DNA of 64,000 bases, from assembly GCA_963813715.1 (NCBI GenBank), contig CAWFAK010000015.1, forward strand, positions 67,008-131,007. The letters are read 5' to 3'. The notes under the pieces were generated by a model that was not told where the DNA came from, ran no database searches, and saw only the letters and a program-made list of their open reading frames with translations. A program made the position numbers and the translations under genes. Origin of the DNA: an uncultured Planctomycetaceae bacterium. GTDB lineage: Bacteria; Planctomycetota; Planctomycetia; Planctomycetales; Planctomycetaceae. The first letter of the stretch is position 1. Each line of letters opens with the position of its first letter. This document shows, one piece after another, positions 32,752-49,388 of the stretch.

Positions 32752-33513
32752 GCGACCACCCGACTCCACGCGTTAACCGTGCAGGTGTCGCGGTCAAGCA
32801 GTTCGTCTCATGCCGTCATTCGGTTTCGCGCGGCAGTGCTCGCCGAGTCGAATCCGGTCCAACCTCCCGTCGGGTCTCGTGTCCCGTCCCATGTCCCGTC
32901 CCAATGTTCCCGGCGCTGAGTCAACTGCTTTGCTGGGTCAACTCCCTAGTGAAACGAAGTGTCCCGACCCACCGGCCAATCTCTTTCCGGCTCGACTTCC
33001 CGGGCCCGACCCCGCGCAGTCATCTCCAGTGAGGGGCCGGTTTCTCCGCGGTTTTCTCGGTGAAACAACGTGTCCCGTCCCGTCGTCCGCGTCCCGTCGA
33101 TGGCTACGAAATGTTTCCGGACCTGCCCTCCCGAGGTCCGTCCTCCAGCCCCGCCGCTGCCGGGGATCTTTTTCTCCCCTATGTGAAATGGATCCCCATC
33201 ACCGCCGGGGATCCTTTTTTGTTCCCGGCGGGGATCTTTTCACCAGCGGTCGAGACTCTGCAGGCCACGGACGCCGCGCAACCGCACCGAGAGAAGCCGA
33301 GCGCAATCCGCGCAAGCGACCGCTCGCGTGCCAAAGCCGCTATCTCCATTGAGCCACAAAAACCCGATTCGGCCAAGATCAGTCTGGCGAAATTCGGGCT
33401 TGGCCGGCCGGGCTGGTTTGGCCGCTGCGGTGGGCGCGTTTCTGTCCCACTGCCCTGGTAGCGTCCGTGTTTGAATCACGGTTTTTTGAGCGATCGGAAC
33501 GGGTAGTTTGAAC

Positions 33514-33774
33514 TTAGGGCAGTGCTCGCTTTATTGCGTCCCCGACGCCGTGCATCGTGCGATCAACGGCAGCAGAGTGGTCCATGCACCAAACGATCGG
33601 CCAATAGATCGCCCCCAGAATCGATTCGGATCGCTGGTTTGAGATGAGTCCCCCGTCAACGCAGTAGGTGAACGCGACCGCCACCGGGAAGATGCTTAGG
33701 ACATAAATAGTGAGCAGCGCCACCGGCCACCACATCCACTTCCACGACTGGCGTCTCTTCGGTTCGTCGCTCAT
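33514..33774 (-). CDS. Cassette: small membrane protein (YxLSxxP family)
   Basis: Starts MSDEPK in the TGACGGCATG motif; IYVLSIFP...IYWP. Confidence 0.8.
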   Translation of the reverse strand: MSDEPKRRQSWKWMWWPVALLTIYVLSIFPVAVAFTYCVDGGLISNQRSESILGAIYWPIVWCMDHSAAVDRTMHGVGDAIKRALP

Positions 33775-33807
33775 GCCGTCACGAGTGGGTGCGGGTTGTG
33801 TTGGTAT

Positions 33808-34062
33808 TCAGTCCGCGATGTTTGACCACAAATGCACGTACCAGTGCAGCGCGTTTCCGAACGATGGAAATTTTTCGCTGAGCCAGAATAGAGGCGCGTA
33901 GGCCGTGAACTGCGGACCGCTAACTATGCCGCTCCCCCACGGACCGAAATGATCGTCGAGCCACCAGACCGGCCCCATCGACAGCGGATAAGCGATCAAG
34001 AGCAACGCCAGCGCCGTCCAACCAATCCACACTCGCGACCGTCTCTTCGGTTCGTCGCTCAT
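33808..34062 (-). CDS. Cassette: small membrane protein (YxLSxxP family)
   Basis: MSDEPK start motif; AYPLSMGP...AYAPLFW. Confidence 0.8.
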   Translation of the reverse strand: MSDEPKRRSRVWIGWTALALLLIAYPLSMGPVWWLDDHFGPWGSGIVSGPQFTAYAPLFWLSEKFPSFGNALHWYVHLWSNIAD

Positions 34063-34100
34063 GCCGTCACCTGGGCGATTGGTACGGGAGTTCACGGGTC

Positions 34101-34464
34101 TCAGAACTTTGTGGCGACAACGATTGCGACAATCCAAACCCCGACAATGACGACGGCGATCGTTGCGAACCGGGCTAGCCGCCCAGTGGAACCGGAGAAA
34201 AGCGACATGCCATCAGCTTTGTTCGGCCGCGCCAACCATGCGACAATCCGCGCCGAGATGATCGCAATGAGCCCCGAGACGCAAAGATAGAGGAAGAAAT
34301 CTCCTGAGCGATCCGGGCGATTTCCGAACGCCCAACTATCGAGTCGGACGAAGCCGTACATCGCGCCAATGAAAACCCAAAAGGACACGAGCACGCCCAG
34401 CACCCAGGCAAAGCCTGACGCTAGCGACATCCGCCACTGATGGTCGCCCCTGGTCTTCGCTCAT
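34101..34464 (-). CDS. Cassette: three-TM protein (frameshift near start)
   Basis: MSEDQG start in motif at 34464; hydrophobic ORF 34101-34430 in another frame. Confidence 0.65.
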
Positions 34465-34624
34465 GCCGTCATTCCGGGGGATTAGCCACGCGAGCTCAGT
34501 GGTGGCAATGCAGCCCACAAAATGTGGATCAAGAATAAGGTCACCGCGCACCAGCTAAAGACGACAGCGAAGCGCGGGTTGTGCCTGCGTTTGAATCACG
34601 GTTTTTCGCTTTTGGCACGGGAGT

Positions 34625-34828
34625 TTAGCGGGGCCGGGGCCAGAATCGCAGGACGCTCCACACGATGAGGCACCCAACGCACGCGCCCGGGATGGCAACG
34701 ATCACTTTCAACCCACTGGCCACAGTAGCGGCGGACGCTCCCGCCCACACTGCGATCCAGGTTCCGGCATCTAATCGCGTCTGGTTAGACGTGTGCTTTT
34801 CTGGATTAGACTTCGGTTCGCGGCTCAT
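34625..34828 (-). CDS. Cassette: small membrane protein
   Basis: MSREPK start motif; stop abuts AACTCCCGTGCC. Confidence 0.75.
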   Translation of the reverse strand: MSREPKSNPEKHTSNQTRLDAGTWIAVWAGASAATVASGLKVIVAIPGACVGCLIVWSVLRFWPRPR

Positions 34829-34857
34829 GCCGTCACCTTAGCGCGTGGCACGGGAGT

Positions 34858-35077
34858 TCAGGGCGCGGCGCTGCGTCCTGCGTAGCGCTGCAACAGTCCG
34901 ATCACGAGGAAGATGAGTCCGGATGTCGTGAGGCCCATTCGTAGCACCTCCACCAGGCTTCCCCGTTCAAGGTGCCAAGCGTAGAGCACCGCCGCGATGG
35001 GCAGGATGATGGCCGCAGTCCTAAGCAGCGCGCGGCCATTCGCGAGGAGATCTTCCGGTTTGCGGTTCGTCGCTCAT
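34858..35077 (-). CDS. Cassette: two-TM protein (frameshift near start)
   Basis: MSDEP start; alternative frame LRTAAIILPIAAVLYAW...GLIFLVIGLLQR ends at TGA in the end motif. Confidence 0.65.
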
Positions 35078-35165
35078 GCCGTCATTCTAGCGGGGGCGGT
35101 ACTCTGGGTTCAGTTTCGGTAGTGCCTGCGGTTGAAACCGGGTTTTGAGCGATTGGCACGGGAGT

Positions 35166-35394
35166 TCAGTGACGCTTGCTGAACGGGTACGCCCAGATCC
35201 GCATGGACTCCCGGAAAAATTCGCAGTTCTCAAAGAGCCAGTCGACCGGCGCGTAGGCCGGACTCGATGGCTTGCCACCATCCCGAATCTTCCGTGAGAC
35301 GCCAAACTGGGGCTTCCGAGAGCGGGTAACAGGCGATGCCGACGATTGCCCAGCGGAGCCACGCCAACAAACGCCGCTTTCGTTCGTCGCTCAT
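35166..35394 (-). CDS. Cassette: YxLSxxP family membrane protein (frameshift)
   Basis: MSDERK...CYPLSEAPV; second frame AYAPVDWL ends at the end motif. Confidence 0.7.
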
Positions 35395-35609
35395 GCCATC
35401 TTCCTGGCGATAAATTCCACCAGTCCGACGACGGATGCCGTCACAGCGACGATCGCAAAGAGGGTTCTCATTTCGAGAAGACCGAAGGCTGTGAGTGCGA
35501 TTGACACAAAGGAAAGAGCGAGGCCCGCGAAGTCTACGTAGATAAGGCGAGCGTCTCGGCGCCTCGCGTCCTGCTTCTGCAACTCGTGATGCTTCGGTTC
35601 GTCGCTCAT
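35391..35609 (-). CDS. Cassette: two-TM protein
   Basis: MSDEPK start; stop overlaps the next ATG (ATGA). Confidence 0.75.
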   Translation of the reverse strand: MSDEPKHHELQKQDARRRDARLIYVDFAGLALSFVSIALTAFGLLEMRTLFAIVAVTASVVGLVEFIARKMA

Positions 35610-35613
35610 GCTG

Positions 35614-35772
35614 TCACTTCAATAGCGCCTTCGCGATTGAGTCGCCCAGCTGCCTCGACACTTCGCGGCCCGCAATTCGCCCGATCAGTAAGCTCGCGCC
35701 GACTTCTGCGATGCACACGGCCACAACCAGTACGATCGTGCCAAGGATGACCTTGCGTCGGTTGAGTCTCAT
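35614..35772 (-). CDS. Cassette: 52-aa membrane peptide
   Basis: MRLNRRKVILGTIVLVVAVC...; stop is the TGA of the next TGACAGCATG motif. Confidence 0.7.
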   Translation of the reverse strand: MRLNRRKVILGTIVLVVAVCIAEVGASLLIGRIAGREVSRQLGDSIAKALLK

Positions 35773-35876
35773 GCCGTCATTCTAGCGGCGGCGGTTGGAG
35801 TGCCAGACACCCAGGGATCATCGCGCAGGGTAGTGGGCGCGTTTGAAAAGCGAAAGTTGGCGATTGGCACGGGAGT

Positions 35877-36258
35877 TCACTTGCCTGTGAGCATCCCAAT
35901 TCCAAAAGCCATCGGGGCCAGCATCGTGATGCCGGCGACGGTTCGTCCCACTGCCACATGGTTTAGGCGACCAAGCATCAGGGCGACGAGAAACACGGCG
36001 AGCGCGGCACACTAACGGCGCCAAAGTGAAAAGGCCCCCTCTTGCTAGGCGTGTCTTCCAGTTACGTCGGGAGGGAACGTCCCGCGAGTACCAGCGGAAT
36101 GTGACGAAGACTGCGATCAACCACACGCCTATTCCAAGCGGCATCGCATCAAGCGGAAAGAGCACGGCGCCCGTGACGGCCGCCACCACAAGGAACGCGA
36201 CGCCGCCCACAACCGAGAGCAGTCCGCTCAACAATCCGGACTTCGGTTCGTCGTTCAT
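35877..36258 (-). CDS. Cassette: multi-TM protein (frameshift)
   Basis: MNDEPK start motif; hydrophobic; TGA in the end motif at 35877. Confidence 0.65.
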
Positions 36259-36278
36259 GCCGTCATGTCCCGTTGGCG

Positions 36279-36515
36279 TCAGAGCCGACCATGTCGTTTC
36301 ATTCGCTTGAGCAAGCTCTTCGTAATCACGTAACCCTCATGGTCTCCAATTACCGTGTCAACGCCACAGTGCGGACAAATCGTGGTCACCTCGCCCGTTT
36401 GTAGCGTGTCATCTTCGCCCATCCAATGCACGATTGCCGTTGGCGGAAAGATAGCGTAGCACGAGTAACACCCGCACAGCTCGCTCCCGCAAATGTCGTC
36501 GGAGTTTCCGCCCAT
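36279..36515 (-). CDS. Cassette: small Cys-rich (Zn-binding) protein
   Basis: CGCYSC...ICPHCGVD; TAGAATGACGGCATG start. Confidence 0.8.
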   Translation of the reverse strand: MGGNSDDICGSELCGCYSCYAIFPPTAIVHWMGEDDTLQTGEVTTICPHCGVDTVIGDHEGYVITKSLLKRMKRHGRL

Positions 36516-36536
36516 GCCGTCATTCTAGCGGCGGAT

Positions 36537-36676
36537 TGAACCGCTCCATAAACGTGCGGAGTGTCGAGTTGTTCCGCTCGACGTGCGACGTGCAGATCGT
36601 CCCAGCTCGCGTATCCCGCTGACATTGATCCGATCAGCCTGCACGAGCGGCGGCGGCGCGTCGCGGCCCGACTCGG
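36537..36676 (-). pseudogene. IS1-family transposase fragment
   Basis: Translates ESGRDAPPPLV...TICTSHVERNNSTLRTFMERF, matching the transposases in this window. Confidence 0.85.
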
Positions 36677-36785
36677 TGTGGCTCCGTTTCAGGAAAGTCA
36701 AAAGACGACACCACCCCCACCACGGTAGTGTCCGTGTTTGACACCGGGTTTTTGGCGATTGGCATGGGAGTTTGGGGGGCGCACG

Positions 36786-37001
36786 TCACAGCGGGAAAAG
36801 CAGGTTCCACACGTGGTCGAGAGGCCGATAAATGGGAATGGCCACGTTAATCAAAACCTTTGAACCGGTCCTGCGAAAGACGCGCATTGCCAGCCGTTCT
36901 ACAGGATCCTCCGAAGCCACGTACACAATAATCATCACGATCAGCCCGATCAGCCAAACCCAGGGCCGCAACCACGAGTGCTTATTCGGTTCGTCGCTCA
37001 T
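36786..37001 (-). CDS. Cassette: YxLSxxP-like membrane protein
   Basis: MSDEPN start; VYVASEDPV...IYRPL. Confidence 0.8.
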   Translation of the reverse strand: MSDEPNKHSWLRPWVWLIGLIVMIIVYVASEDPVERLAMRVFRRTGSKVLINVAIPIYRPLDHVWNLLFPL

Positions 37002-37010
37002 GCCGTCATG

Positions 37011-37190
37011 TCAGCGGTACAGCAAGATTGCAGCTGCCGCCCTCAGGATAGAGACCGCGCCCAGAGCGAGGATAAAACAGGTGAACGTGCCGGCCCGCTT
37101 CTTGGACAGCAATAGCCTGATGGGAATGGTCGCCAGCCCAATAAGGGCAAGCAAGATTCCAATCTTCATCGCGAGCCAATAAACGCTCAT
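37011..37190 (-). CDS. Cassette: two-TM protein
   Basis: MSVYWLAMK start within GAATGACGGCATG. Confidence 0.75.
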   Translation of the reverse strand: MSVYWLAMKIGILLALIGLATIPIRLLLSKKRAGTFTCFILALGAVSILRAAAAILLYR

Positions 37191-37194
37191 GCCG

Positions 37195-37293
37195 TCATTC
37201 TGGCTGTGAGTACCGGACAAAGACGACCGCCAGAATCGCCAAGCCGATCAGGGCGAGCACGAGCGCCTCGCGGCGATTGGGTAGTCGGATCAT
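37195..37293 (-). CDS. Cassette: 32-aa membrane peptide
   Basis: MIRLPNRREALVLALIGLAILAVVFVRYSQPE; stop is the TGA of the next motif. Confidence 0.65.
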   Translation of the reverse strand: MIRLPNRREALVLALIGLAILAVVFVRYSQPE

Positions 37294-37302
37294 GCCGTCA
37301 TT

Positions 37303-37579
37303 CTAGCGGGTCTCGAAGCGCGCCCAAGCGGCAAACGGTCCGAGCGACGGCGGAGTCCGTGGGGCTCGTCCAACTCCGCTTTGACACGAAAGGTAATGGA
37401 GCGTGATCGAAAGGTCGCGGGCCTTGCTGTAAGCCCTGTCAGCAGCCTGGAGCAGTTCGTCCGTGTGCGGAAAGCCCCGTGCGTCCATCCGCCGTCTCAC
37501 GCGCGCAGATATTGCACGTAGGCGCGAGCCGCGCGCCGATGGCGGCGACTTGGGCTGGCGTCAGGTCGTGGGAATCCAT
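37303..37579 (-). CDS. Cassette: small soluble hypothetical protein (frameshift)
   Basis: MDSHDLTPAQ start after a variant motif (TAAAAT); continues RRMDARGFP...LHYLSC in another frame. Confidence 0.55.
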
Positions 37580-37692
37580 GCCCGCAATTTTAGCGGCGGA
37601 TCCATTTGCGGGTGATTTCGAATTCAGGCACTACCCCCCCCGCAGGTAGTGGGGTCGTATCCTGGACGAAAAACGGCGATTGGCACGGGAGT

Positions 37693-38004
37693 TCAACGCA
37701 TCCAGCCGACAATCGCCCTGACTCCGGCGATGAGCACGAAAAGCACAACGAACCCGGCGATGCCGCATCCAATCAAACCCACTAGATACCGGAATCGGCT
37801 TGGCTTCGGCGCGCCAACCCGGCGCTCGATTACCACTAAGGCATTGAGGTCCTCAATGGCGCTCGTGCAACCCGCAGCAGCGAGCATGAGATCCCGCAGG
37901 CGCTGAAAGGACTCACGATTGCAAATCAGCATCAACTCGCCGCGCGTCTGCCCATGGCAAATCTCAATGCCGCCGGCGCTCCCTGCATCCGGTTCGTCGC
38001 TCAT
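37693..38004 (-). CDS. Cassette: protein with C-terminal TM
   Basis: MSDEPD start; stop in the end motif. Confidence 0.8.
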   Translation of the reverse strand: MSDEPDAGSAGGIEICHGQTRGELMLICNRESFQRLRDLMLAAAGCTSAIEDLNALVVIERRVGAPKPSRFRYLVGLIGCGIAGFVVLFVLIAGVRAIVGWMR

Positions 38005-38033
38005 GCCGTCACCTCAGCGATTGGCACGGGAGT

Positions 38034-38366
38034 TCAATCAAGCGATTCGAGCCATTGCGAGAAGATCTCCGCCCTAGACTCCGCTGATGGCGACTCAATT
38101 CCCTGAGCCTTCATCGCCTCGACCAGTTGCACGAGTAGTCGCCAATAACAGCGATGATCATCCTTGCGCTCAAACTGTCCAACGTCCCACACGGCACCGG
38201 CACCACCCCACATCGCGCCCGACGCCAATGCCGGCCCAATAGCCGTGCTGTCCCATTCCGCAATCGTCGCGACTGCGGCAACGTAATCGGCTTGCGGATG
38301 GTCGTTTCTGCGTAGGATCGCTTCGAGACGTCGCAGAATGGAAATCAGTGGCAGCCCGTCGCTCAT
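38034..38366 (-). CDS. Cassette: soluble hypothetical protein
   Basis: MSDG start after TAGAAT; WGGAGAVWD motif; stop in the end motif. Confidence 0.8.
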   Translation of the reverse strand: MSDGLPLISILRRLEAILRRNDHPQADYVAAVATIAEWDSTAIGPALASGAMWGGAGAVWDVGQFERKDDHRCYWRLLVQLVEAMKAQGIESPSAESRAEIFSQWLESLD

Positions 38367-38566
38367 GCCGTCATTCTAGCGGCGGATTCGGCGGGAATGA
38401 GACCGCCGCATTCAACGGCTGATCGATCGGCTGCAACGGGATGAGTAGTTTCACCAAGCGGGTGGGGTCGCATCGCGGTTATTTTTCAGTACCCCACTAC
38501 CCCGAAAGTGCGCCCCGCAGGTAGTGGGCGCGCATCCTGGACGAAAGTCGGCGATTGGCATGGGAG

Positions 38567-38917
38567 TTACGCGGCGCTTCGCACAGCGGGAGACAATATC
38601 CCAAGTATCCAGAACACCGCGAGTGCGGCAATCAACCACACGATTGGGTGCTTGATCGCCTCAAACAGAAGGGTGCGGCACTCGGAGAATGTAGCACGCC
38701 CGCGCCAATGACGGGCGAAATAGAAGCACCACAAGGCTGTGGCCGGCACCAGCACCAGAATCATTTGCCAAGGATCCTGGTGGGGCCAGCGGTAACGAAC
38801 CGGCTGCGGGGCGTCTATCCGTTCAATGAGAAATGCCGCCGTTGCGATGCAACAGAGTGCCAGACCCGCAGCTCCGATCAGCCCGCGAAGCCAGTTGTTG
38901 CCCCGTTCGTCGCTCAT
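38567..38917 (-). CDS. Cassette: three-TM protein
   Basis: MSDER start after TAGAAT; TAA in the end motif. Confidence 0.8.
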   Translation of the reverse strand: MSDERGNNWLRGLIGAAGLALCCIATAAFLIERIDAPQPVRYRWPHQDPWQMILVLVPATALWCFYFARHWRGRATFSECRTLLFEAIKHPIVWLIAALAVFWILGILSPAVRSAA

Positions 38918-38941
38918 GCCGTCATTCTAGCGGCGGACCGC

Positions 38942-39520
38942 TCAAATGAACTCGCGATACTTGCGCAGTTCGGCGGCCGTTTGAGGTAGTCCGTGTTTTT
39001 CGAGCGTGTCCGCGTATTCGTCTGCTGTTTTCGCGGGGCGCGTCAGGTTCGCTCGGCAATTCTTCGCGGCCGAAAGTGCGGCGGGGCGACACAGCTCAAG
39101 CTGACATACCGTGAAATCGTCTGTGTCGATCACTTCTACGCCATAGGTGGCGACGTATTCCGTCGGAAAATCCCTAGTGTTAAACGTGACGATGGCATCG
39201 GCATTCGACACAATCGCCGCCGCCAACACGTGTCTATCGTCCTGGTCTGGGAGATCAAGCGAGCCAACGAGTCGCTCGTGGCCCGTGACGATACAATCCG
39301 GGAAGCTTTCGTTCATCCGAGCCTTGAGGCGTTCGATCTTGCTCGGCTCAATATCTGGACGATTTTCGCGTAAGGCGCGAGTCCACTCGTCGTGTATTTG
39401 ATCGGTCCATCGAGGGCGAAAAAGATCTTCCGTCGCCATCCACAGAACAAGATCACGGACAGGAGCAGAGTAGAGAACGCAGGCGTCTAAAACGACTGTG
39501 AAACGGTTGGCGAAATTCAC
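38942..39520 (-). CDS. PIN-domain protein (putative toxin)
   Basis: VVLDACVLY, LPDQDDRHVLAAA, IVTFN.RDF. Confidence 0.9.
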   Translation of the reverse strand: MNFANRFTVVLDACVLYSAPVRDLVLWMATEDLFRPRWTDQIHDEWTRALRENRPDIEPSKIERLKARMNESFPDCIVTGHERLVGSLDLPDQDDRHVLAAAIVSNADAIVTFNTRDFPTEYVATYGVEVIDTDDFTVCQLELCRPAALSAAKNCRANLTRPAKTADEYADTLEKHGLPQTAAELRKYREFI

Positions 39521-39523
39521 TCA

Positions 39524-40000
39524 TTAGTACTCCAAACCCATTTCCTCCGATTCGGCCGTGATCCGTTTTAGCGTTTCTCGGCGCTCCGAATCGGCGCGGT
39601 GCTTGTGGGCCATCAAGTCCTTGAACAGGATTCTTCGATGGGACCCGACTTTACGATGTGGGATTTTTCCGCTCTCGATTAGGCCGATTAAGAATGGCCT
39701 GCTGACATTGAGGATGTCGGCCGCCTGCTGCGTTGTCAGCTCGGCGTGAATTGGAATAAATGTTACTGCGTTACCGCGAGCCATTTCCGACAGGATGTCA
39801 TTCAGGAGCAAGAAGGCGGACATCGGAATTTCTACGAATTCTTCATGTCCGCCGTCCGGCTCGAATCGAACCCCTACGTTGCGCGGCTGCACACGTGGGC
39901 TCCGAAAACGAGCCAACTTTTTTACCGATTCCTTCGCGAGCCTCTTGTCGTCATCAGACGGAAGGACGGCCTCGCGCGACTTGAGCACTCCGGCGCTCAT
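39524..40000 (-). CDS. Excisionase-type HTH protein (putative antitoxin)
   Basis: ELTTQQAADILNVSRPFLI.L...G.IP..KVG.HRRI; directly upstream of the PIN gene. Confidence 0.9.
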   Translation of the reverse strand: MSAGVLKSREAVLPSDDDKRLAKESVKKLARFRSPRVQPRNVGVRFEPDGGHEEFVEIPMSAFLLLNDILSEMARGNAVTFIPIHAELTTQQAADILNVSRPFLIGLIESGKIPHRKVGSHRRILFKDLMAHKHRADSERRETLKRITAESEEMGLEY

Positions 40001-40228
40001 TGCTAGGCCTCCGTAAGCACAAAAATGTTTTTCACCCTTGAAGCCAATCATCGACGTCGTACAATAATACTCCTTAATCGAAGCAAACGAAGCAAGCGAA
40101 ATAATCGCAATTTCGATAAACTCGCACAAATTGTTTATCCACAATGGTTTGTGCGCTAACCATTCCGGTCGATCCATGACCAGAAGTCCGACACGTCAGT
40201 GGTGGTGCCGCTCCCCCAATTCATGCCG

Positions 40229-40320
40229 GGAGAACGGCCCGCGTTTGGCGGCGCAGCAGCCTTATAACCTGCCGGAGGGGTCCGCGTACGCGCGGACGGG
40301 ATCGTAACCCCCTATCTCCG
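40229..40320. ncRNA. Conserved structured motif, copy 1 (also 43183-43281 and 47016-47108)
   Basis: Three copies with conserved blocks and a variable but base-paired internal hairpin. Confidence 0.5.
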
Positions 40321-40530
40321 CTTTTGGTGAGCAGCTTCGGCTAGCAGCCCACGGATAGCCTCCGTAACGGCAGCCGAGCGATTCCAGCCCCGTTTCCCCG
40401 CGAGCACGTCCAGACGGTCCACAAGCCCCGAGGGCACGCTAGCGGAGATGTTTACGGTCGGCCCCTCTTCGGGGTGAGCTGTCTTTCGCCCGGCTCCCTC
40501 ACGCTTGCCGCCATGCTGGCTTTTGGCCAT
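40312..40530 (-). CDS. Ribbon-helix-helix (CopG-like) regulator
   Basis: GGKREGAGRK...ISASVP...NRSAAVTEAI. Confidence 0.8.
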   Translation of the reverse strand: MAKSQHGGKREGAGRKTAHPEEGPTVNISASVPSGLVDRLDVLAGKRGWNRSAAVTEAIRGLLAEAAHQKRR

Positions 40531-40739
40531 TTCCCTGCCTCTTGAAAAACTCATACGAATCAAGTTGACATTCCCATTTGATTTTGTATGATAAATCAAG
40601 TCAGTGGTCAAGGCAAAGAAAAACCCCGGAAGGACGCCAATCCAACCGGGGCGAGAACAGACATCCGGGCGAACCCAGAATGCCAGTCCAGACAACTGCA
40701 TTCTACCACGGTTCGCCGCAGTCGAAAGAGGCGGTTCCC

Positions 40740-41669
40740 GTGGCCAACTTCATCAGTCGAGACAAACAGATTCAGGTTCTGCGGCTCTTGTCGGAAGGAA
40801 ACTCGATTCGTTCGGTCGTGCGGCTGACTGGAATCCACAAGAGCACGATCACGCGGCTCGTCGTGCGGTTCGGGAACGACTGCCGCCAGTACCTCGACTT
40901 CGCGATGGCCAATCTGAACCTCGACCACGTTCAGATTGACGAGATTTGGACGTTCTGCGGGATGAAAGAGGGACACGCCAAAAAGCGGCACCTCGATACG
41001 TCAGTCATCGGCGACCAGTACCTCTTCACGGCCCTCGACACCGAAACCAAGCTGTTGGTCACGTTCGCGATCGGCAAGCGCACTGCCGCCACGACAGAGG
41101 CGTTTATCGAGGATCTGTCGAAGCGGCTCTATCGCGGCCCCGAGGCGATCGGCGATGACCGCCCGCAGTTGAGCACCGATGGCTTCACGCCCTACGGGCC
41201 GGCGATCCGCAACCACTTCCACGGCACGGTCAAGCACGGCGTATTGATAAAGCAGTACCGCAACCCGGAAGTGGGCCGCTACGCTCCGCCGGACCTGACC
41301 GGAACCGAACGGTTAAACATCAACGGGATACGCGACCTGTCCACGATATGCACCAGCCACGTCGAGCGGAACAACTTGACGATCCGCACATTTATGCGAC
41401 GATTCACTCGGCTCGCGTTGGGCTTCTCAAAGAAGGTCGAGAACTTGGCCGCGGCCACGGCGATCCACGTTGCGGTCTACAATTTCTGCCGCATCCACTC
41501 TACGATTCGTTGCACCCCCGCAATGGCCGCCGGTGTCATCGATCGGCTGTGGGGCATGGGCGACCTGTTCGACGCGGTGACGGACCACGCGGCTCAGCTC
41601 AAAGCGAAGGCCCGTCGTGACCGCCGAATTCAGCGGCTGATCGACAGGCTGCGGAAAGAGGGACGCTAG
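40740..41669 (+). CDS. IS1-family DDE transposase
   Basis: N-terminal HTH (EGNSIRS), IDEIW, STDG, TSHVERNNLTIR, FSKK. Confidence 0.9.
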   Translation: MANFISRDKQIQVLRLLSEGNSIRSVVRLTGIHKSTITRLVVRFGNDCRQYLDFAMANLNLDHVQIDEIWTFCGMKEGHAKKRHLDTSVIGDQYLFTALDTETKLLVTFAIGKRTAATTEAFIEDLSKRLYRGPEAIGDDRPQLSTDGFTPYGPAIRNHFHGTVKHGVLIKQYRNPEVGRYAPPDLTGTERLNINGIRDLSTICTSHVERNNLTIRTFMRRFTRLALGFSKKVENLAAATAIHVAVYNFCRIHSTIRCTPAMAAGVIDRLWGMGDLFDAVTDHAAQLKAKARRDRRIQRLIDRLRKEGR

Positions 41670-41767
41670 GGCGGGCGCGTTTCGTGGTTATTTCAAACTG
41701 TCCCACTACCCGCCCCGCAGGTAGTGGGGTCGTTTGAAAAGCGAAAGTTGGCGGTTGGCACGGGAGT

Positions 41768-42007
41768 TCAAGTGAAACGTGACATCTGTGCCACGTACCA
41801 ATCAAAGAATGACCGCAGTGTGGTGGACTTGCTACACGCCCATTGAAGAGGGTCGTAGACCGTGTTTATGGTCTCGGTGCTGATACAGCCGCCGCTCCAA
41901 AGCAAATACGCCGGCCCGAGGCTCAAGAAATACAGGGCTGGAAGCGGCACGAGCGCCCAGCCGATCCAGCCCCACCACCGCCGTCGTTTCTTCGGTTCGT
42001 CGCTCAT
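41768..42007 (-). CDS. Cassette: YxLSxGP family membrane protein
   Basis: MSDEPK start after TAGAAT; LYFLSLGP...VYDPLQW; stop in the end motif. Confidence 0.85.
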   Translation of the reverse strand: MSDEPKKRRRWWGWIGWALVPLPALYFLSLGPAYLLWSGGCISTETINTVYDPLQWACSKSTTLRSFFDWYVAQMSRFT

Positions 42008-42277
42008 GCCGTCATTCTAGCGGCGCAGTTGAAGCCGACATTTAATGTTGCCACGATAAATGTGATTCGGGGCGTCTCTTTGGCTTGTGCGTAAGCTGTG
42101 TGGCCGTAGCATATTGAGGAAAGTGGGCAAATTTTCGTTCCAATCAGCCCGTCCCGTTCGTTTTATCTAATGGCGGTCGGGAGTGAGTGAAACAGCCGCC
42201 AAGGAGAACTGGGAGTGCTGGAAACGAACCAGGGATGTTTCGTTCCACGGGGTAAAAAACAGGGCACGGGTGCATCA

Positions 42278-42466
42278 ATGAACACGCGCGAACTGCTGGC
42301 CGCCTATGCAGATTTGCTCAACGCCCACGGAGTCGATTCCGAAGAGGCAAAGGAGTTCTTGGAAGCTAACCGCTTCCAGGAAGAATTCTACGACCTCGCC
42401 GTACTGTCGAAGAAGCTCAAAGCTGCGCTGACCTCGCCGGTGTGCGAGCAAGCCTGCAACAACTGA
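42278..42466 (+). CDS. Small hypothetical protein
   Basis: 62-aa helical ORF upstream of the sigma factor. Confidence 0.5.
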   Translation: MNTRELLAAYADLLNAHGVDSEEAKEFLEANRFQEEFYDLAVLSKKLKAALTSPVCEQACNN

Positions 42467-42570
42467 TTTTTGCGGTGGATTTCTAGCAGGGATGTTCGGC
42501 GCGCGACGGATTTAATGCGCGCCGTGTTGGCCAAGGAGGGCATCGTGGCAATGGACAAAGGGACGTGCGA

Positions 42571-43173
42571 ATGTCCGACACTGCCCCCCTTAAGCGATGG
42601 TCCGATGATCGAATCCTCCAAGAAGCCAGCCAGGGCAACGAAAGGGCGTTTGAGGTTTTCTGCGATCGCTCGTTGCCGTCGCTTTATCGCTACGTTCGGA
42701 ACCAATGCCGCAAGCGCGGCATTCCGGAAGACTTAGCGCAGGACTTCTGTCACGAAGCCGTGATCCGTGCGATCACGTGCATTCGCGGATGTGCAGCCGG
42801 CGAGATTCGCCCCTTTCCAAGCGTGTCCCAGGCTTGGTTAAAAAGGATCGCCGTCAATGTGCTAAAAGACTGGGGGCGCCGGGAGCGCCGGGTCGTTTTC
42901 GTCAAAGAACTTGAGATTGAATCGCGAACCGACGTTGCGCCTGAAGACGCTCTCGAAAGGGAGGAAATACTCAAGTTTTTTACTTGGCTTCCGGAACGCG
43001 AGCGAGACATGCTCGAACTCGTGTTCGTCAACGAGAAAACAATTGCCGAAGCTGGTGCCCAGCTAAACATCAGCCACGCCAACTCCTATAAGGTGTTTCA
43101 GCGAGCCTTGGAATTACTTCGGGATCTCCTCGCTGAACACGGCCATATGCCGCAACGGTCTGAGACGGATTGA
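42571..43173 (+). CDS. ECF-type sigma-70 factor (passenger gene)
   Basis: AQDFCHEA, AWLKRIAVN...D..RR, LPERERDML...TIAEAG. Confidence 0.8.
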   Translation: MSDTAPLKRWSDDRILQEASQGNERAFEVFCDRSLPSLYRYVRNQCRKRGIPEDLAQDFCHEAVIRAITCIRGCAAGEIRPFPSVSQAWLKRIAVNVLKDWGRRERRVVFVKELEIESRTDVAPEDALEREEILKFFTWLPERERDMLELVFVNEKTIAEAGAQLNISHANSYKVFQRALELLRDLLAEHGHMPQRSETD

Positions 43174-43289
43174 GTCCGTCCCGGAGAGCGGTCCGCGTTT
43201 TGGGGGGCGCAGCAGACTTATACCCTGCCGGAGGAGTCGGACCACGGAAGGTTCCGATGGGATCGTAACCCCCGCTCTCCGCCTTTTCT

Positions 43290-43469
43290 TTAGCGCGCCT
43301 TTCGCGCCGCTGCCTTCAGCAGCACGTCCCTAGCCCAGGTTGACGTATTCCCTTGCGCGGCTGAATCCAAGGCTTCGCGTTCGCCTTCTGTGAGGCGGAT
43401 GCGCAGCTCGGAATCCCGCCTCTCTTCGTCCGTCTTCGGCGGACGGCCCCGCTCTCGCTTGTCTTCCAT
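43290..43469 (-). CDS. Ribbon-helix-helix regulator (59 aa)
   Basis: RGRPPK...LRIRLTEGEREALDSAA...STWARDVLL; same position as the other RHH genes. Confidence 0.75.
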   Translation of the reverse strand: MEDKRERGRPPKTDEERRDSELRIRLTEGEREALDSAAQGNTSTWARDVLLKAAARKAR

Positions 43470-43662
43470 GAATTTATCGTAGCAACAATATTTTTCGGTT
43501 TCAAGGCTTGAACCACTGTTTATTGTTGCTACAATAAATGTCGTGATGAAAACCCCGTCGTGCTGATAACACGGCGGGGCGAACTACAACCAGGCGTTTC
43601 CGCTGATTGCAGTCTAGGCAACTTCATTTTAGCGGATTCGTCGCAGACGAGTGAGCGAATCC

Positions 43663-44592
43663 GTGGCCAATTTTCTCAGCCGCGACAGACAGATCCAGGT
43701 TCTGCGCTTGCTATCAGAGGGCAATTCGATCCGCTCGACAATGCGCCTCACAGGCATCGAGAAGAAAACCATCACGCGGATCGTGGTCAGGTTCGGCAAC
43801 CAGTGTCGGCAGTACCTCGATTTCGCGCTGTCGAACCTCAACCTCGACCACGTTCAAATCGACGAAATTTGGACGTTCTGCGGAATGAAAGAAGGGCGCG
43901 CCAAGCGGCGGAAGCTGGACACGTCGGTCATTGGCGACCAGTACCTCTTCACCGCTCTCGACACCGAAACCAAGTTGCTGGTCACGTTCGCTGTAGGCAA
44001 GCGTACGGCGGCCACGACTGAGGCGTTTATCGAGGATCTGTCCAAGCGGCTCTACCGCAGCCCCGAGGCAATCGGCGACTATCGGCCGCAGTTGAGCACC
44101 GACGGGTTTACTCCCTACGGGCCGGCGATCCGCAATCACTTCCACGGGACGGTCAAGCACGGCGTTTTGATAAAGCAGTACGTTAATCCGGATGTCGGCC
44201 GCTACGCGCCTCCGGCGCTGGTCGGGACCGAGCGATTGAACGTCAACGGCATACGCGACCTGAGCACGATATGCACATCGCACGTTGAGCGGAACAATCT
44301 GACGATCCGCACGTTTATGAAGCGGTTTACTCGGCTGGCCCTGGGCTTCTCAAAGAAGCAGGGCAACCTTGCCGCCGCGACCGCGATCCACGTTGCGGTT
44401 TACAACTTCTGCCGCATTCACAGCACGATCCGATGCACACCCGCGATGGCTGCGGGAGTGATTGATCGCTTGTGGGGCATGGGCGATCTCTATGACGCTG
44501 TGACGCGGCACGCGGCAGAGGTCACCGCCAAGCTGAGCCGGGATGCCAAGATCGCGAAGCTGATCGAGAAATTGAAGAGGAGCGAACCCTAA
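43663..44592 (+). CDS. IS1-family DDE transposase
   Basis: Close paralog of 40740-41669 with the same catalytic motifs. Confidence 0.9.
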   Translation: MANFLSRDRQIQVLRLLSEGNSIRSTMRLTGIEKKTITRIVVRFGNQCRQYLDFALSNLNLDHVQIDEIWTFCGMKEGRAKRRKLDTSVIGDQYLFTALDTETKLLVTFAVGKRTAATTEAFIEDLSKRLYRSPEAIGDYRPQLSTDGFTPYGPAIRNHFHGTVKHGVLIKQYVNPDVGRYAPPALVGTERLNVNGIRDLSTICTSHVERNNLTIRTFMKRFTRLALGFSKKQGNLAAATAIHVAVYNFCRIHSTIRCTPAMAAGVIDRLWGMGDLYDAVTRHAAEVTAKLSRDAKIAKLIEKLKRSEP

Positions 44593-45119
44593 TTGCAGGC
44601 TCGGGCGACATCATTCATAAACGCAGCCGCTTGGATTTGGATATTTTCCCTTGGCGTCTCATTGCTCGGCGGCCACGCGGAAATGTCGACCTGTGGCCTC
44701 ATGCCAGCAAGTCGAAAAAGCTCGTTGAAGAGATCGCCCGACAGCCGGACGGTCAGCTCCGGACTGGTTGTCCGAAAGCGGCCATCTGGATTATCCATCG
44801 CCCTGAGCGCCCCAGTACGATCGTTCTCGTGCATTCGCCCTTGGAACAGTTCGTATCGGAGTTTGAGTTCGGCACAGATGCGAAGGCGCTGGTTGATATC
44901 ACGCGCACGTTGCTCGTCAGCTTGTCGCCGGTTGTCTTCAGCGCGCTGTTCTTGTTTTTCTTGCTTGGCCTTGTGTTCCTTCCAAATGTCCCACGGAATC
45001 GGGGACAAGAACCCAGCGATCAAGAGTCCCAGGAATGCGACGATAGCAATCTTGTCAGGCATGGATCGCGCCTGAAACCAAGCCCAAAGTCTTGCTAACC
45101 GAACGACGAGCCGACCCAC
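44589..45119 (-). CDS. Membrane-anchored hypothetical protein
   Basis: N-terminal TM followed by coiled coil. Confidence 0.55.
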   Translation of the reverse strand: MGRLVVRLARLWAWFQARSMPDKIAIVAFLGLLIAGFLSPIPWDIWKEHKAKQEKQEQRAEDNRRQADEQRARDINQRLRICAELKLRYELFQGRMHENDRTGALRAMDNPDGRFRTTSPELTVRLSGDLFNELFRLAGMRPQVDISAWPPSNETPRENIQIQAAAFMNDVARACN

Positions 45120-45131
45120 GTTTAATCTCGC

Positions 45132-45867
45132 CTACTGGAACGGGAAGCATGGGATTTGCTTCCACTCCGTTTCGCCTTTGTGCCAGACGAACATTTTGCC
45201 GTTGTCCTCGTCGTAGGCAATAACCGAGTCGGCATTTCCGCTGAATTTCAGTCTGTCCTTCCCCGGGGGGCAATTGTTTCGACATGGGGTACATCCACCC
45301 TGCTCGGACGAAGGGCGGGGAGTACGCGAGTCCGGACCTGGGACTCGATGTGGTGGAGAAGGCTCTGGGTTCGCGTTTCCGGTTGTCCCCCCTGGGCAGA
45401 ACTCTTTCCCGTCCTTGATCACGGCGAGGGAATACCCTGCGCGTTCTCTTTGAGCCGGATTGTCTTGGCGTCCGCCAAGCTGATGTTCTGGGTGAGCCCC
45501 CGGCGATCGATTGGAACAAGTTTGTAGTCGTGCCATTCTCCGTCGCAGCAACACTCGCGACACGGAGCCTGGGGAATTGGAGCCACGCAGGAGGAGCAGC
45601 CGGAGCCTGAAAGGCTGGTGCAGGCCATGCCTGAGCCGGTGCAACGGATGGCATGCCTCCGCCGTACCATGGCCCGGCTGCGGGCTGTTGCACGCAACTG
45701 AGTTGCGCCCCTACATATTGAGGTGTGCAAATTGGTCCGCACGTCCCGTAGCACGGTGGCGTGCAGCAGCATCCGCATGGTGGGCAGCATCGCGGGCAGT
45801 CGTAAAAGCCGCAGCATCCCGTCGCCCCCGCAACGAGGGCGGGGACTAATAACGCGATCCATCGCAT
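45132..45867 (-). CDS. Cys-rich putative lipoprotein and/or downstream hypothetical protein (boundaries uncertain)
   Basis: MRWIALLVPALVAGATGCC...CPRCCPPCGCCC; overlapping frame ends at 45132. Confidence 0.4.
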
Positions 45868-46147
45868 TGGGGAAGGCCTGTTTTGTGAGGCGGAGCGCGA
45901 GACAGGCGAGATGGGGCGGACAGTCCCTCTTCGGCAATCTGTAACGCCAGCCTTGAACGGGATCGCCGAACGTTGCTGACTTGTTAAAGTTTGATTGAAG
46001 TCCCATTGGTGTTTTCACCCCCTGGGTGGGGTCGTTTGGTTTTATTTCAAAGTACCCCACTACGGCGGTGTCTCCGTTTGAAAACTGAATTGTGCTGATT
46101 GGCACGGGTTTTCATTCGGGACGCTGCCCCTAGTGGGGGTAGTGGAG

Positions 46148-46417
46148 ATGACTAATGAAGAAATCGGGCGCTGGATCGACGATCCGGCCGCACGTGAAGT
46201 GATCCTGAAATTTGTCCGCAATGTGGCGGGCGAACCGAACCTCGACTGGAGTGGTCTTGTCGAGGCTTTGGAGCATCCCGACGAATACGATTACGGTCGC
46301 GAGCTATCCGCCCCTATTCGCGCTCTTTGGTCGCGCATGGACACGGGCGAGAGGGTGGTCGCCATGATTATTTGTGAGCAGCTTGCGAATTGGCGGCGTC
46401 TGACTGCGCTTTCTTGA
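46148..46417 (+). CDS. Hypothetical protein
   Basis: GGAG RBS directly before ATG; 89 aa. Confidence 0.5.
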   Translation: MTNEEIGRWIDDPAAREVILKFVRNVAGEPNLDWSGLVEALEHPDEYDYGRELSAPIRALWSRMDTGERVVAMIICEQLANWRRLTALS

Positions 46418-46991
46418 TGGCCGCCATCACCCGCGCACCTGAAGCAGCCGACATGATTTTCGTGTAGGCGTTGCACAGCTCTCCTGACAGCAAATAAGCG
46501 GCGCACATGAACAGATTTCTCGCGGGAGTGCGCCTCTTAGTCATTCGCGCCCAAACTCTCACCGCCTTCGGAAACCGTTCTGAATTCTTTTTCTGCTCCG
46601 GAGACAGTAGGTCGAAAATCGAGTGTGCGCGTTCCATGTTCAAGGTTACGGAGCCTGGATGGTGCGCGAAATGGTTTCGCAGCTCATTTAGCTTGACCAT
46701 TGCTTGGAAGGTATGGCTGTCGATCGCGAGCAAAACCCGAGCCACAACCAGCTTCACGTAAAAGGATTGGAGCGGTGGCTGCGGCCCATCTTTTAACAGC
46801 CACGCAATTAGCGAATCTGTCTCACCAGATTCCGCATGGAGCTTAGCCCAGAGCACGTCCCCTAGCAGCCCATCACAATATCCGTGCACCGCCAGCACGC
46901 ATCCGCGATCGGATTCGTCGAGTCCGATCGTCTCCCAGAAGCGCCACCCGCCAATGTCGGGCTCGGTGAGCTTCTTGCGTCTTTTTGACAT
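46368..46991 (-). CDS. MtlR/HEPN-like protein
   Basis: ESDRGCVL...PLQSFYVK...LNELRNHFAH (RxxxxH). Confidence 0.65.
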   Translation of the reverse strand: MSKRRKKLTEPDIGGWRFWETIGLDESDRGCVLAVHGYCDGLLGDVLWAKLHAESGETDSLIAWLLKDGPQPPLQSFYVKLVVARVLLAIDSHTFQAMVKLNELRNHFAHHPGSVTLNMERAHSIFDLLSPEQKKNSERFPKAVRVWARMTKRRTPARNLFMCAAYLLSGELCNAYTKIMSAASGARVMAAIKKAQSDAANSQAAHK

Positions 46992-47099
46992 CGGGACTCT
47001 CTATACGCGCGCTTCGGAGAACGGCCCGCGCCTTGGCGGCGCAGCAGCTTTATACACTGCCGGAGGGGTCCGTGCGCTCACGGATGGGATCGTAACCCC

Positions 47100-47319
47100 C
47101 TATCTCCGCTTTTGGCGTCCAGCGCTTGCCAGAAGCCCACGGATGGCCTCCGTGACGGCCTCTGAGCGGTTCCACCCGCGCCTTGTCGGCCCGCGCGTCT
47201 AGACGCTCCATGAGGCTTTCCGGCACAGTAGCACCGATGTTTATCGTCGGACCCTCTGGATTAATTGGCTTGCGCCCGGCCCCCTCCCGTTTGCCTCCGT
47301 GCCCTGTCGTTGGGGTCAT
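47100..47319 (-). CDS. Ribbon-helix-helix regulator (frameshift)
   Basis: Paralog of 40312-40530 (GGKREGAGRK...NRSEAVTEAIRGLLA). Confidence 0.75.
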
Positions 47320-47356
47320 TTTTCCCGCCTTGTTGAAATAATTATACAAATTCAAC

Positions 47357-47385
47357 TTGCCACGCACATGTTGAATAAATATAAT
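47357..47385 (+). promoter_or_regulatory. Sigma-70 promoter for transposase 3, overlapped by palindromic operators
   Basis: TTGCCA-17 bp-TATAAT; two GTTGAA...TTCAAC palindromes. Confidence 0.7.
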
Positions 47386-47530
47386 GTATTCAACGACGTC
47401 CGACAAGGGCAACAAAAAACCCCGCCGGTGCTGAAACACAAGCGGGGCGACAAAACATCCAGGCGAACCTGAATGCCGTCTAGGCAACTGCATTCTACCA
47501 CGGTTCGCCGCAGTCGAAAGAGGCGGGACC

Positions 47531-48465
47531 GTGGCGAATGTTTTGAAGCGGGACAAGCAGATTCAGGTTCTCAGGCTGCTGGTCGAAGGTAACTCGATTC
47601 GCTCGACCGAACGGATTACCGGGATCAGCCGCAACGCGATCATGCGACTCTTGGTGCGGTTCGGAACCGCTTGCCGCGAATTCCTAGACCTGAACCTCAG
47701 CAACCTGCATCTGGAGCACGTCGAGATCGACGAGATTTGGACGTTCGTTCGCAAGAAGCAGCGGAAGCTGCACGGGTTCGAGATCATCGATCCAGAAATC
47801 GGCGACATTTACTTGTTCACGGCGCTCGACCAATCCACGAAGTTGCTGGCGTCGTTCGCGATCGGGAAGCGGAACAACCAGACGACGCAAGCGCTGATCC
47901 GCGACCTGGAGAGCCGGATGGTCCGCCGGCCGGACCACAGCGGGGCCGAACGCCCGCAACTTTCGACCGATGGATTCAACACCTACCCCGGTGCGATTGC
48001 GGAGCGGTTCGGGTCGTCCGTGAAGCATGGGGTTTTGATAAAGCAGTACCGCAATCCAGAGTCGGGCCGATAGCGCCCCCGGATCTGATCGGCACCGAGC
48101 GGATCGCGGTCCAGAACATCACCGATGTGACCACGATATGCACGTCGCACGTCGAGCGGAACAACCTGACGATCCGCACGTTTATGAAACGGTTCACGCG
48201 CCTCTCGATGGGCTTCAGCAAGAAGCTAACGAACCTCGCCGCGGCGGCCGCGCTCCAGATCGCCCACTACAACTTCTGCTGGCGGCTGCGTCAGCCGGGG
48301 AAGAGCGGACAGCGGACCCCGACGCCCGCGATGATGGCGGGGCTGGTCGAGACGCTGTGGACGATCGAGGATCTGTACGATGCCGTGATGAAACAGCAGG
48401 CCGACAAGAAGCACGCGGCCCGCGTTGCAAAACTTATTGACCGTCTGCGACGAGAAAAGCTATAA
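47531..48465 (+). CDS. IS1-family DDE transposase (frameshift near 48070)
   Basis: IDEIW and STDG in the first frame; TSHVERNNLTIR in the second. Confidence 0.88.
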
Positions 48466-48684
48466 TCATGGGAACAAGGACGGGGCCTAGTCGCAACGGA
48501 AGCGACAAGAAGTGAGAAGCATAACGGCCCGTCGAACGCGAGTGCGTTCAACAGGCCGTTTTTTTGTTGGATGAGGGGAGGGGCCGGATCCGGCAGACTC
48601 TCTCATTAGGAACAACTGTCTCGGCGGACGGTCTCATTAGCCGCAACCGTCGCACAAGATTCGGTTCTCTCCCTCCATCTCAGC

Positions 48685-48723
48685 GCCCGACGGTCCACTG
48701 ACACTGGATCGTCGGGTTTTTTT
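48685..48723 (+). terminator. Rho-independent terminator
   Basis: GCCCGACGGTCCA / TGGATCGTCGGGT stem followed by a T-run. Confidence 0.65.
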
Positions 48724-48863
48724 GTTTCGACCGCTGTCGATCTGCGGTTGAGTTTAACAGCGTCAGGCGAAAACAGTCAATATGAGTTTGTTACTTATGA
48801 GCCAATGACTTAGGATGAAAACGACACGAGATTGCCACCAAACGTTCGGTTGGCTTTTACAGA

Positions 48864-49388
48864 ATGTCGCTCGTCGCCCAATACGTCGCCGTCAGTAACA
48901 GGCGAGTGACGATCCCCCAGAATATCGCGACTGAGCTGCCCTGGATACCCACCGGGAAGAAGGGGGATCCAACTATAGAGTGCATCGCTCTGCACGGACC
49001 AGCGGGCGGGATTCAAATCGATCGGCCCGACGGAGAACTGGCAGCGCGACGAAATGATTTCTTGCGGCAGTTTTCGGCCGCAGAAATTTCGCCGCTCGAA
49101 GCCGCCGAGGACTGGATGCACCTAGCGCGATTCTATGCAGCCAGTTGGACAATTAGCCTGACGTCGGACGTCAGCTCTAAGCGATTCACGCTTCCGGCTG
49201 AGATGCTTGAGACCGGACTTCTTGGCCCTGGCGTGCCGCGCGTAGTCCTGTTGTTCGCTGCTCGTGGGATTCTTGAAATGTGGGGTGCCGAGCAATGGGA
49301 AAATTACCAAGCGAAGATCGCGAATAGGGCCGCCCACCTGCACGCAGAATCTGTCGCCGATCTCGAACGCCGGGGTGGCTCCGTTTGA
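48864..49388 (+). CDS. MraZ-like (SpoVT/AbrB) protein
   Basis: Duplicated RRVTIP / KRFTLP motifs and GILEMW. Confidence 0.6.
   Translation: MSLVAQYVAVSNRRVTIPQNIATELPWIPTGKKGDPTIECIALHGPAGGIQIDRPDGELAARRNDFLRQFSAAEISPLEAAEDWMHLARFYAASWTISLTSDVSSKRFTLPAEMLETGLLGPGVPRVVLLFAARGILEMWGAEQWENYQAKIANRAAHLHAESVADLERRGGSV

Follow-up and report, generated by a model that had tools for sequence, protein, structure and literature searches.

In the T4-type phages RB49 and phi1, recombination between repeated promoter boxes (PeSL cassettes) shuffles orphan genes with no integrase; crossovers were mapped between the ATG, the Shine-Dalgarno sequence, and the -10 box, and homologous recombination was proposed, as described in the part of the report consulted here (PMC2839356). 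The planctomycete arrays analyzed below resemble that account in that repeated promoter/start boxes bracket small orphan genes, with insertion, loss, and replacement at the boxes. Both parts of the PeSL-type feature, a repeated box with putative promoter activity and gene swaps at this box, are found. Set against the same part of the account, the planctomycete arrays differ in being chromosomal and in lying inside an IS1-type transposon, in having a putatively leaderless head that includes the first codons, in having a second (tail) box derived from an IS end, and in having a joint with no terminator stem-loop (the folding covered the joint). By analogy, the arrays may be said to work like PeSL cassettes, but they are not a member of that group.

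Non-autonomous derivatives of insertion sequences (IS) of the IS1 family are termed MICs. Transporter IS (tIS) are defined in a review that, in the part consulted, has their passengers lost only by transposition-independent events (PMC9330008). As far as this source describes them, the vehicle of the planctomycete arrays is like an IS1-family tIS in its DDE_Tnp_IS1 transposase, in GGTAGTG-tipped inverted repeats that enclose passengers (PIN, HTH, and sigma genes), and in its head-to-tail tandems and adjacent deletions. Unlike a tIS as described there, it has a slot that has been refilled with >100 unrelated small genes at fixed boxes, and its units fuse into operons. From its sequence, the vehicle appears to have the features of an IS1-family transporter IS for which we looked.

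Integron arrays, in the part of the source consulted, share with the planctomycete arrays small unrelated ORFs, a stop codon that extends into the box downstream, a leading promoter, and an identical joint between different genes, and the R box of their attC sites has the consensus RYYYAAC (PMC7439510). The planctomycete arrays, in contrast, lack RYYYAAC, a stable hairpin, covariation, and IntI, and many of their genes have a putative promoter of their own. This system is not an integron. Its recurring joint is probably the inner end of an IS fused to a common gene-start signal, which would string exchangeable genes for tiny membrane proteins into operons.

The fused END+START joint

The window, which is the whole 64,000-nt stretch of soil planctomycete DNA that was analyzed, contains three fused joints (Table 1). 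A first-pass annotation had described these three copies, placing each 1 base too far to the right; the spacer that it gave as 2-3 nt is 2 nt in 3/3 of them, and the absence of an IS tip from their interior was confirmed in the same three. The left motif of the joint has 6 matches compared with a shuffle mean of 0.03, which is far above chance. On the minus strand, the joint runs from a stop-codon tail (END) through a Shine-Dalgarno-like GGTGA to TGACGGC-ATG (START); it is END plus START minus the tip and the promoter. Alone, the half-boxes are much commoner: loose searches of the 7.49-Mb genome matched START 88 times and END 33 times, in some cases by chance. Below, G000 denotes the genome of the window, which is part of its contig C15, L numbers denote compared loci, and X1-X4 denote assembled contigs of sequencing runs; X4 is an RNA run, whose contigs are no sign of transcription.

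The joint is present in 5/11 further genomes of the genus and in 0/49 genomes outside it. When GTDB stretches with the same joint were collected, 13/14 came from Planctomycetaceae MAGs, and the lone Sphingobium match was taken as chance. The joint spacer takes 33 forms among 43 joints and is 10-16 nt long, with the commonest, an 11-nt spacer, exact in 10/43. Complete fusions of END to a promoter at the shared word AATCCGC were found three times among the joints compared, and we read several spacer forms as apparently resembling the left-end variant AAAACCGTGA fused at TGA.

Table 1. Positions of the boxes, genes, and IS features in the window
Feature	Position	Strand	Details
Array: small START-led ORFs and repeated IS left ends	33450-38930	minus	
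IS left ends in the array	33457, about 34577, 35118, 35829, 36724, 37645, 38520		
Direct TGA-CGGC-ATG couplings in the array	e.g. 37293 to 37190, 35772 to 35609		
Fused END+START joint 2	34057-34092	minus	motif search
Fused END+START joint 3	34823-34858	minus	motif search
IS1-type left end	37645-37693	plus	GGTAGTG tip at 37645; END box 37681-37693 inside
103-aa ORF	37693-38004	minus	starts at joint, ends at END box
Fused END+START joint 1	37999-38034	minus	motif search; stop-codon tail, Shine-Dalgarno-like GAGGTGA 38009-38015, TGACGGC, ATG 38004-38002
110-aa ORF	38034-38366	minus	preceded by promoter-type START; shares its TGA with the END half of the joint
Promoter-type START	38364-38385	minus	TAGAAT 38378-38373, 6 nt, ATG
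Right-end remnant	38460-38501	plus	repeat family D19; 18 bp before next left end at 38520
Full IS1-type transporter element	38520-41710	plus	left end, START-END gene, PIN_3, HTH_17, transposase, right end
116-aa START-END gene of first element	38567-38917	minus	
IS1-type DDE transposase	40740-41669	plus	PF03400 36.6 bits, cut-off 24.1; short match
Second full element	41720-46062	plus	9 bp from first; ECF-like sigma gene
79-aa START-END gene of second element	41768-42007	minus	
Transposase of second element	43663-44592	plus	PF03400 above cut-off
Third transposase, interrupted	47531-48463	plus	stop and frame change near 48070

END belongs to an IS1-type left end

END consists of TGA followed by a 17-nt box (TGA-ACTCCCGTGCCAATCGC) and lies about 35-50 bp inside the left tip; when unfused, it runs on for ~35 bp to a CACTACC tip. 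Over ~20 bp, this tip matches the ends that lie just past three IS1-type transposase genes (PF03400). END therefore forms the inner portion of an IS1-type left end. The terminal inverted repeats are ~20 bp long, and their 7 tip bases are invariant in 7 ends.

The END-like word TGGCA was found at the same distance from the tip in three other genera (G521, G461, and G215), in 3/37 loci, many of which are too short to reach the left end. The exact START head is present in 2/121 family genomes, both of this genus, and in none of G521, G461, and G215; relatives of the transposase are present in 33/121. Because END exists in three genera that have no START, the two boxes are not co-evolved inverted half-sites, and the proposal that such half-sites bracket each gene was not upheld. 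Among the five largest repeat families, no similar box arrays were seen near related transposases of other genera (9 regions).

The elements are arranged head to tail, with tip-to-tip spacers of 8-10 bp in 13/18 rows that have a second tip; these rows were drawn from 112 loose pattern matches, many of which occur by chance. START was ruled out as a hot spot for IS insertion by tip-to-START distances that scatter from 3 to 638 bp. The passengers include a toxin-antitoxin-like PIN_3 and HTH_17 pair in the first element (window 38942-40000) and, in the second (window 42280-43173), an ECF-like sigma gene preceded by a small ORF. Other Pfam matches in the window are to DUF1559 and planctomycete cytochrome C.

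Some further arrangements of END were observed. At L068:1778-1824, convergent genes are separated by a palindrome made of two fused, back-to-back END boxes. At L026:7234-7713, a SnoaL-like gene is flanked by an IS tip and an END box and has no START, so the tail can be fused by itself. Viewed from the IS tip inward, END looks like a sigma-54 -24 box whose -12 is broken, and RpoN is present in the genome. The sigma-54 consensus used combines the -24 box with GC at -12 at a fixed spacing. By this consensus END was rejected as a sigma-54 promoter: a -24-like word is present, but the -12 dinucleotide is CA, TA, or other, not GC.

START is the head of a putative leaderless promoter

The unfused START has the form CCGC-TAGAAT-GACGGC-ATG and often includes codons for MSDEPK. 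Across the genome, START sites aside, ATG peaks 6 nt after TAGAAT (16 compared with 1-10 at other offsets) and 6 nt after TACAAT (25 compared with 1-13), and a control hexamer gave no genome-wide ATG peak. A -10-like box followed by 6 nt and an ATG is the layout of a leaderless promoter. START may be the genus-specific head of such a promoter, a reading to which its sequence points.

A second repeated head of the leaderless type, ccgg-TACAAT-CGCGGC-ATG, occurs at 9 sites. Because these make up 9/55 of the sites behind the peak, the ATG peak comes partly from related mobile heads. Sites of the second head are on C4:49843, C5, C8, C9, C15:22662, and C16 (oriented-strand counts); it fronts small genes, two of which are homologous to START-led genes of other genomes.

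In the fused form, TGAGG replaces the -10 box, yielding GAGGTGA, which is complementary to the 16S 3' end on contig C17. No genome-wide ATG peak was found for GAGGTG at the spacing of the joint (26 at offset 5), so it is this complementarity that carries the Shine-Dalgarno reading. The genome-wide ATG peak for AAGGAG lies 1-2 nt closer than the spacing of the joint.

The boxes enclose diverse small genes

We collected 177 distinct START-led ORFs from six genomes and two metagenome contigs. Those of ≥30 aa, which number 163 (median 78), group into 107 BLAST clusters of up to 26 members. A membrane-like stretch was found in 125/163 compared with 27/500 random frames. When 87 of the START-led ORFs were scanned, one passed a Pfam cut-off (DUF3553), and Atlas matches of the small ORFs were to hypothetical Planctomycetota clusters only. 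The stop codon falls on the first bases of END in 42/88 ORFs with END nearby; 12/163 ORFs stop at START's own TGA and 6 at its ATGA.

Homologues of the 110-aa ORF upstream of the joint near 38000 (P0005-P0008) are 56-66% identical to it and equal in length, with a different N terminus; among its equal-length homologues, four start with MSD or MSE and four do not. A search for the donor context of this gene found it in 1/401 genomes of the phylum, that of the window itself. One G009/G002-type gene has a 74% homologue on C6 that shares its native tail and begins with a native start; therefore, START was grafted on alone.

Other features of these arrays and of the genome were noted. The slot between a promoter-type START and END, which usually holds a small ORF, is occupied at G000:C8:418562-418700 by a tRNA-Ile(TAT) gene, the TAT anticodon being a rare one; elsewhere, 32 same-strand tRNA genes are clustered at G000:C7:914718-919431. 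The genes dnaG-rpoD lie directly downstream of an array both in G000 (window 33450-49420) and in G003 (L026:6400-14700), and the gene content of the two arrays differs. The X1-X4 contigs differ from the window by indels of 1-2 bases at 34447, 34864-34867, 35063, and 36006; at these places, window ORFs that follow START are truncated or overlong, and the window may contain frameshifts or assembly errors.

Genes change neighbors at the boxes

The exchange proposed for the joint by the first-pass annotation does occur: near-identical genes change neighbors at the END/START boxes. In three pairs, a near-identical gene has the promoter in one place and the joint in the other, with the break directly 5' of TGACGGC (L004 versus L029, 94.8%; G000:C9 versus L005, 96.7%; G000:C3 versus L043, 91.7%). 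Conversely, the gene that comes after one and the same first gene differs between G000:C5:657849 and L009, with the break inside START. Changes of downstream partner fall inside START or END. We read these crossovers as mapping to the boxes by sequence, apparently not by structure.

Identity to the promoter form, measured with the anchor on the codons only, ends upstream at -7 in 42/94 non-promoter sites and at -10 in 14/94; G is found at -8 in 39/42 of the sites with the -7 edge. Downstream of the ATG, the position of the break varies between +3 and +24. A long MSDE head is present in 31/39 joint-led compared with 23/87 promoter-led ORFs (Fisher p=4.7e-8, with kin not independent), an excess expected if relocation behind a joint needs ~25 bp of homology, not a short core. 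The most varied N termini belong to promoter-proximal genes.

The joint near 38000 and both of its neighbors are inherited intact in L029 (98-99%) and in X1 and X4 contigs, so among close strains this joint is no hot spot. In X2, record 15 matches the window up to the ATG at 37290 and departs from it immediately beyond (a single contig). Joints in the X1-X4 contigs were not counted as crossovers, as their sides are 21-41 letters long and mostly made of common boxes.

The arrays examined contain no recombinase genes; 11 tyrosine-recombinase and 8 resolvase matches were found genome-wide. IS110, with 18 matches, was rejected as the acting enzyme, because the boundaries of the 16 copies examined are not at START or END. 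The IS110-family copies fall into two groups, one of which adjoins GGGAC-type repeats like those at window 32880-33100. Of three reverse transcriptase matches in the genome, none lies near the array.

A model for the spread of the joint, and its rivals

Our favored interpretation, which we hold to be probable, is that the joint is an intercistronic stop-and-restart signal as well as a patch of homology in a family of IS1-type cargo transposons of one uncultured Planctomycetaceae genus. It builds on the observed anatomy and breakpoints, and the enzymatic steps and the expression that it invokes are putative throughout. Each unit has a small passenger gene transcribed toward the left end, with START at its head and END at its tail. 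The transposase would stack such units, and adjacent deletions would trim them. Deletions at short common words (AATC(C)GC or TGA) would fuse END to the next START, and a fusion whose gap reads as a Shine-Dalgarno sequence (GGTGA, 4 nt before ATG) would have spread, giving a two-gene operon. Host homologous or microhomology recombination between the 20-50-bp START and END boxes would then swap whole genes, as between T4 PeSLs, with folding unnecessary. This homology model accounts better for reshuffling than for first capture, given the large share of ORFs that stop exactly on END. The sharp -7 edge, which a site-specific crossover would leave as well, counts against it. So do the missing GAGGTG peak, the share of related mobile heads in the ATG peak, and the intact inheritance of the joint near 38000; neither circles nor transcript ends were observed.

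Less probable, in our estimate, is a site-specific recombinase (tyrosine, serine, or IS1-type transposase) that would cut START as duplex DNA, at a fixed core made up of G or A and then TGACGGCATG. In this layout, the promoter-type START would be the attI and the joint a sequence-defined attC, with newcomers pushing older genes down. The -7 edge and the G at -8 agree with such a core, but the TGA at -7 also terminates upstream genes and belongs to the Shine-Dalgarno-like word, so selection can give the same edge. Use of START's TGA or ATGA as a stop, which leaves 10-13-bp direct repeats flanking the new gene, and the greater variety of N termini next to the promoter both fit insertion at START, where the IS tips show no hot spot. 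The break right after the ATG in X2 would also be expected, but the post-ATG breaks as a whole are scattered and the spacer forms are many. Although the genome has matches to recombinases of two of these classes, none is within the arrays examined, and the MSDE asymmetry, which an enzyme that recognizes only the core would not yield, agrees with a requirement for long homology.

An unlikely reading is that the arrays are a transposon-borne platform for gene capture, parallel to integrons but with no hairpin or IntI, that would act through a further putative enzyme, for which the IS1-type transposase and an enzyme that works on leaderless transcripts are candidates. We likewise doubt the associated proposal that foreign genes would be set precisely between the leaderless head and the subterminal tail and pushed into operons, with a core at -7. 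The points counted for capture are the stops on END, the homologue with an altered N terminus and equal length, and the boxed tRNA-Ile(TAT) gene.

It is more doubtful still that the arrays involve no exchange machinery, with tandem insertion and deletion as the only processes and the boxes as inherited regulatory sequence under selection for expression. This reading agrees with the tip-to-tip spacers, the scattered ends of adjacent deletions, the many spacer forms, and the intact inheritance of the two-gene unit at 38000. It does not explain why the 11-nt spacer recurs between unrelated gene pairs in several genomes, why genes that are 92-97% identical have swapped heads, or why MSDE is enriched among joint-led genes.

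No support for a folded site at the joint

The first-pass annotation had read CTCATGCC and GGCA(C/T)GGGAG as imperfect inverted repeats that fold into an attC-like recombination site. Pairing them over 8 bp around a 2-nt bulge is possible, but not beyond chance: the local complementarity of the joint halves was matched by 4238/5000 shuffles (scoring ignores wobble pairs), and the plus-strand consensus stem contains an A-C mismatch. The three window joints were folded as single-stranded DNA on both strands and at two lengths and compared with shuffles; z ranged from -0.58 to +0.56 for six 37-mers and from +0.31 to +1.11 for six 71-mers. Over 36 joints at two lengths, mean z was -0.25 and +0.24, with z < -2 in 1/36 and 0/36.

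For the covariation analysis, joints were collected with an anchor that leaves the stem free, and 36/54 anchor matches were kept. The 18 that were dropped comprise 10 chance-like matches and 8 START halves with a decayed left arm, the omission of which biased the count in favor of the hairpin. The alignment (A2) holds 35 of the 36 kept joints and the third window joint, in 33 distinct rows. Among its 264 stem cells, there were 0 two-sided changes, with a shuffle expectation of just 0.2 and therefore low power. Neither pairing (92.0% of cells compared with 92.2% when shuffled) nor the covariation score (0.042 compared with 0.043) exceeded the shuffled values in the 33 joints. Variant stem cells break the pair in 21/27 cases on the gene strand and in 14/27 on the plus strand, where the other 13/27 hold it (11 by wobble and 2 by Watson-Crick pairs). 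The bulge columns vary somewhat more (8/66) than the left arm (19/264). An alternative CCGT/ACGG stem register was tried and showed no covariation either, and RNAalifold on the joint alignment returned two unrelated pairs only, without the proposed stem.

In attC sites, the R box comes with a complementary core. The boxes RYYYAAC and GTTRRRY were found in 0/33 distinct joints and are absent from the three window joints with their flanks. Integron integrase (TIGR02249) was above cut-off in 0/12 genomes of the genus (65-98% complete), and an Rfam scan of 33000-42200 with an E threshold of 1 gave no match. A folded site of the attC kind is not borne out by the z values, the stem changes, the R box, or IntI. 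The annotation had named compensatory change in the stem and crossovers at the site as decisive; the former is absent, at low power, and the latter do map here. That a single-stranded hairpin with extrahelical bases is recombined as attC is remains very improbable, even granting its 8 pairable positions, the plus-strand variants that keep the pair, the more variable bulge, and a null result softened by low power, since its loop also varies from 10 to 16 nt and END is older than START.

Discussion

Literature searches listed nothing that describes such arrays. What the present analysis adds is the derivation of END from an IS and a structural test of the joint. The end of an IS1-type transposon and a putative leaderless promoter would together make a standard expression slot, which in six genomes has received >100 unrelated families of small, mostly membrane, proteins. 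In this respect, the arrays would be a chromosomal counterpart of T4 PeSL shuffling. How intact genes are fitted between boxes is the open question behind the origin of integron cassettes. The planctomycete arrays may offer a tractable case for how intact genes come to be fitted exactly between start and stop boxes.
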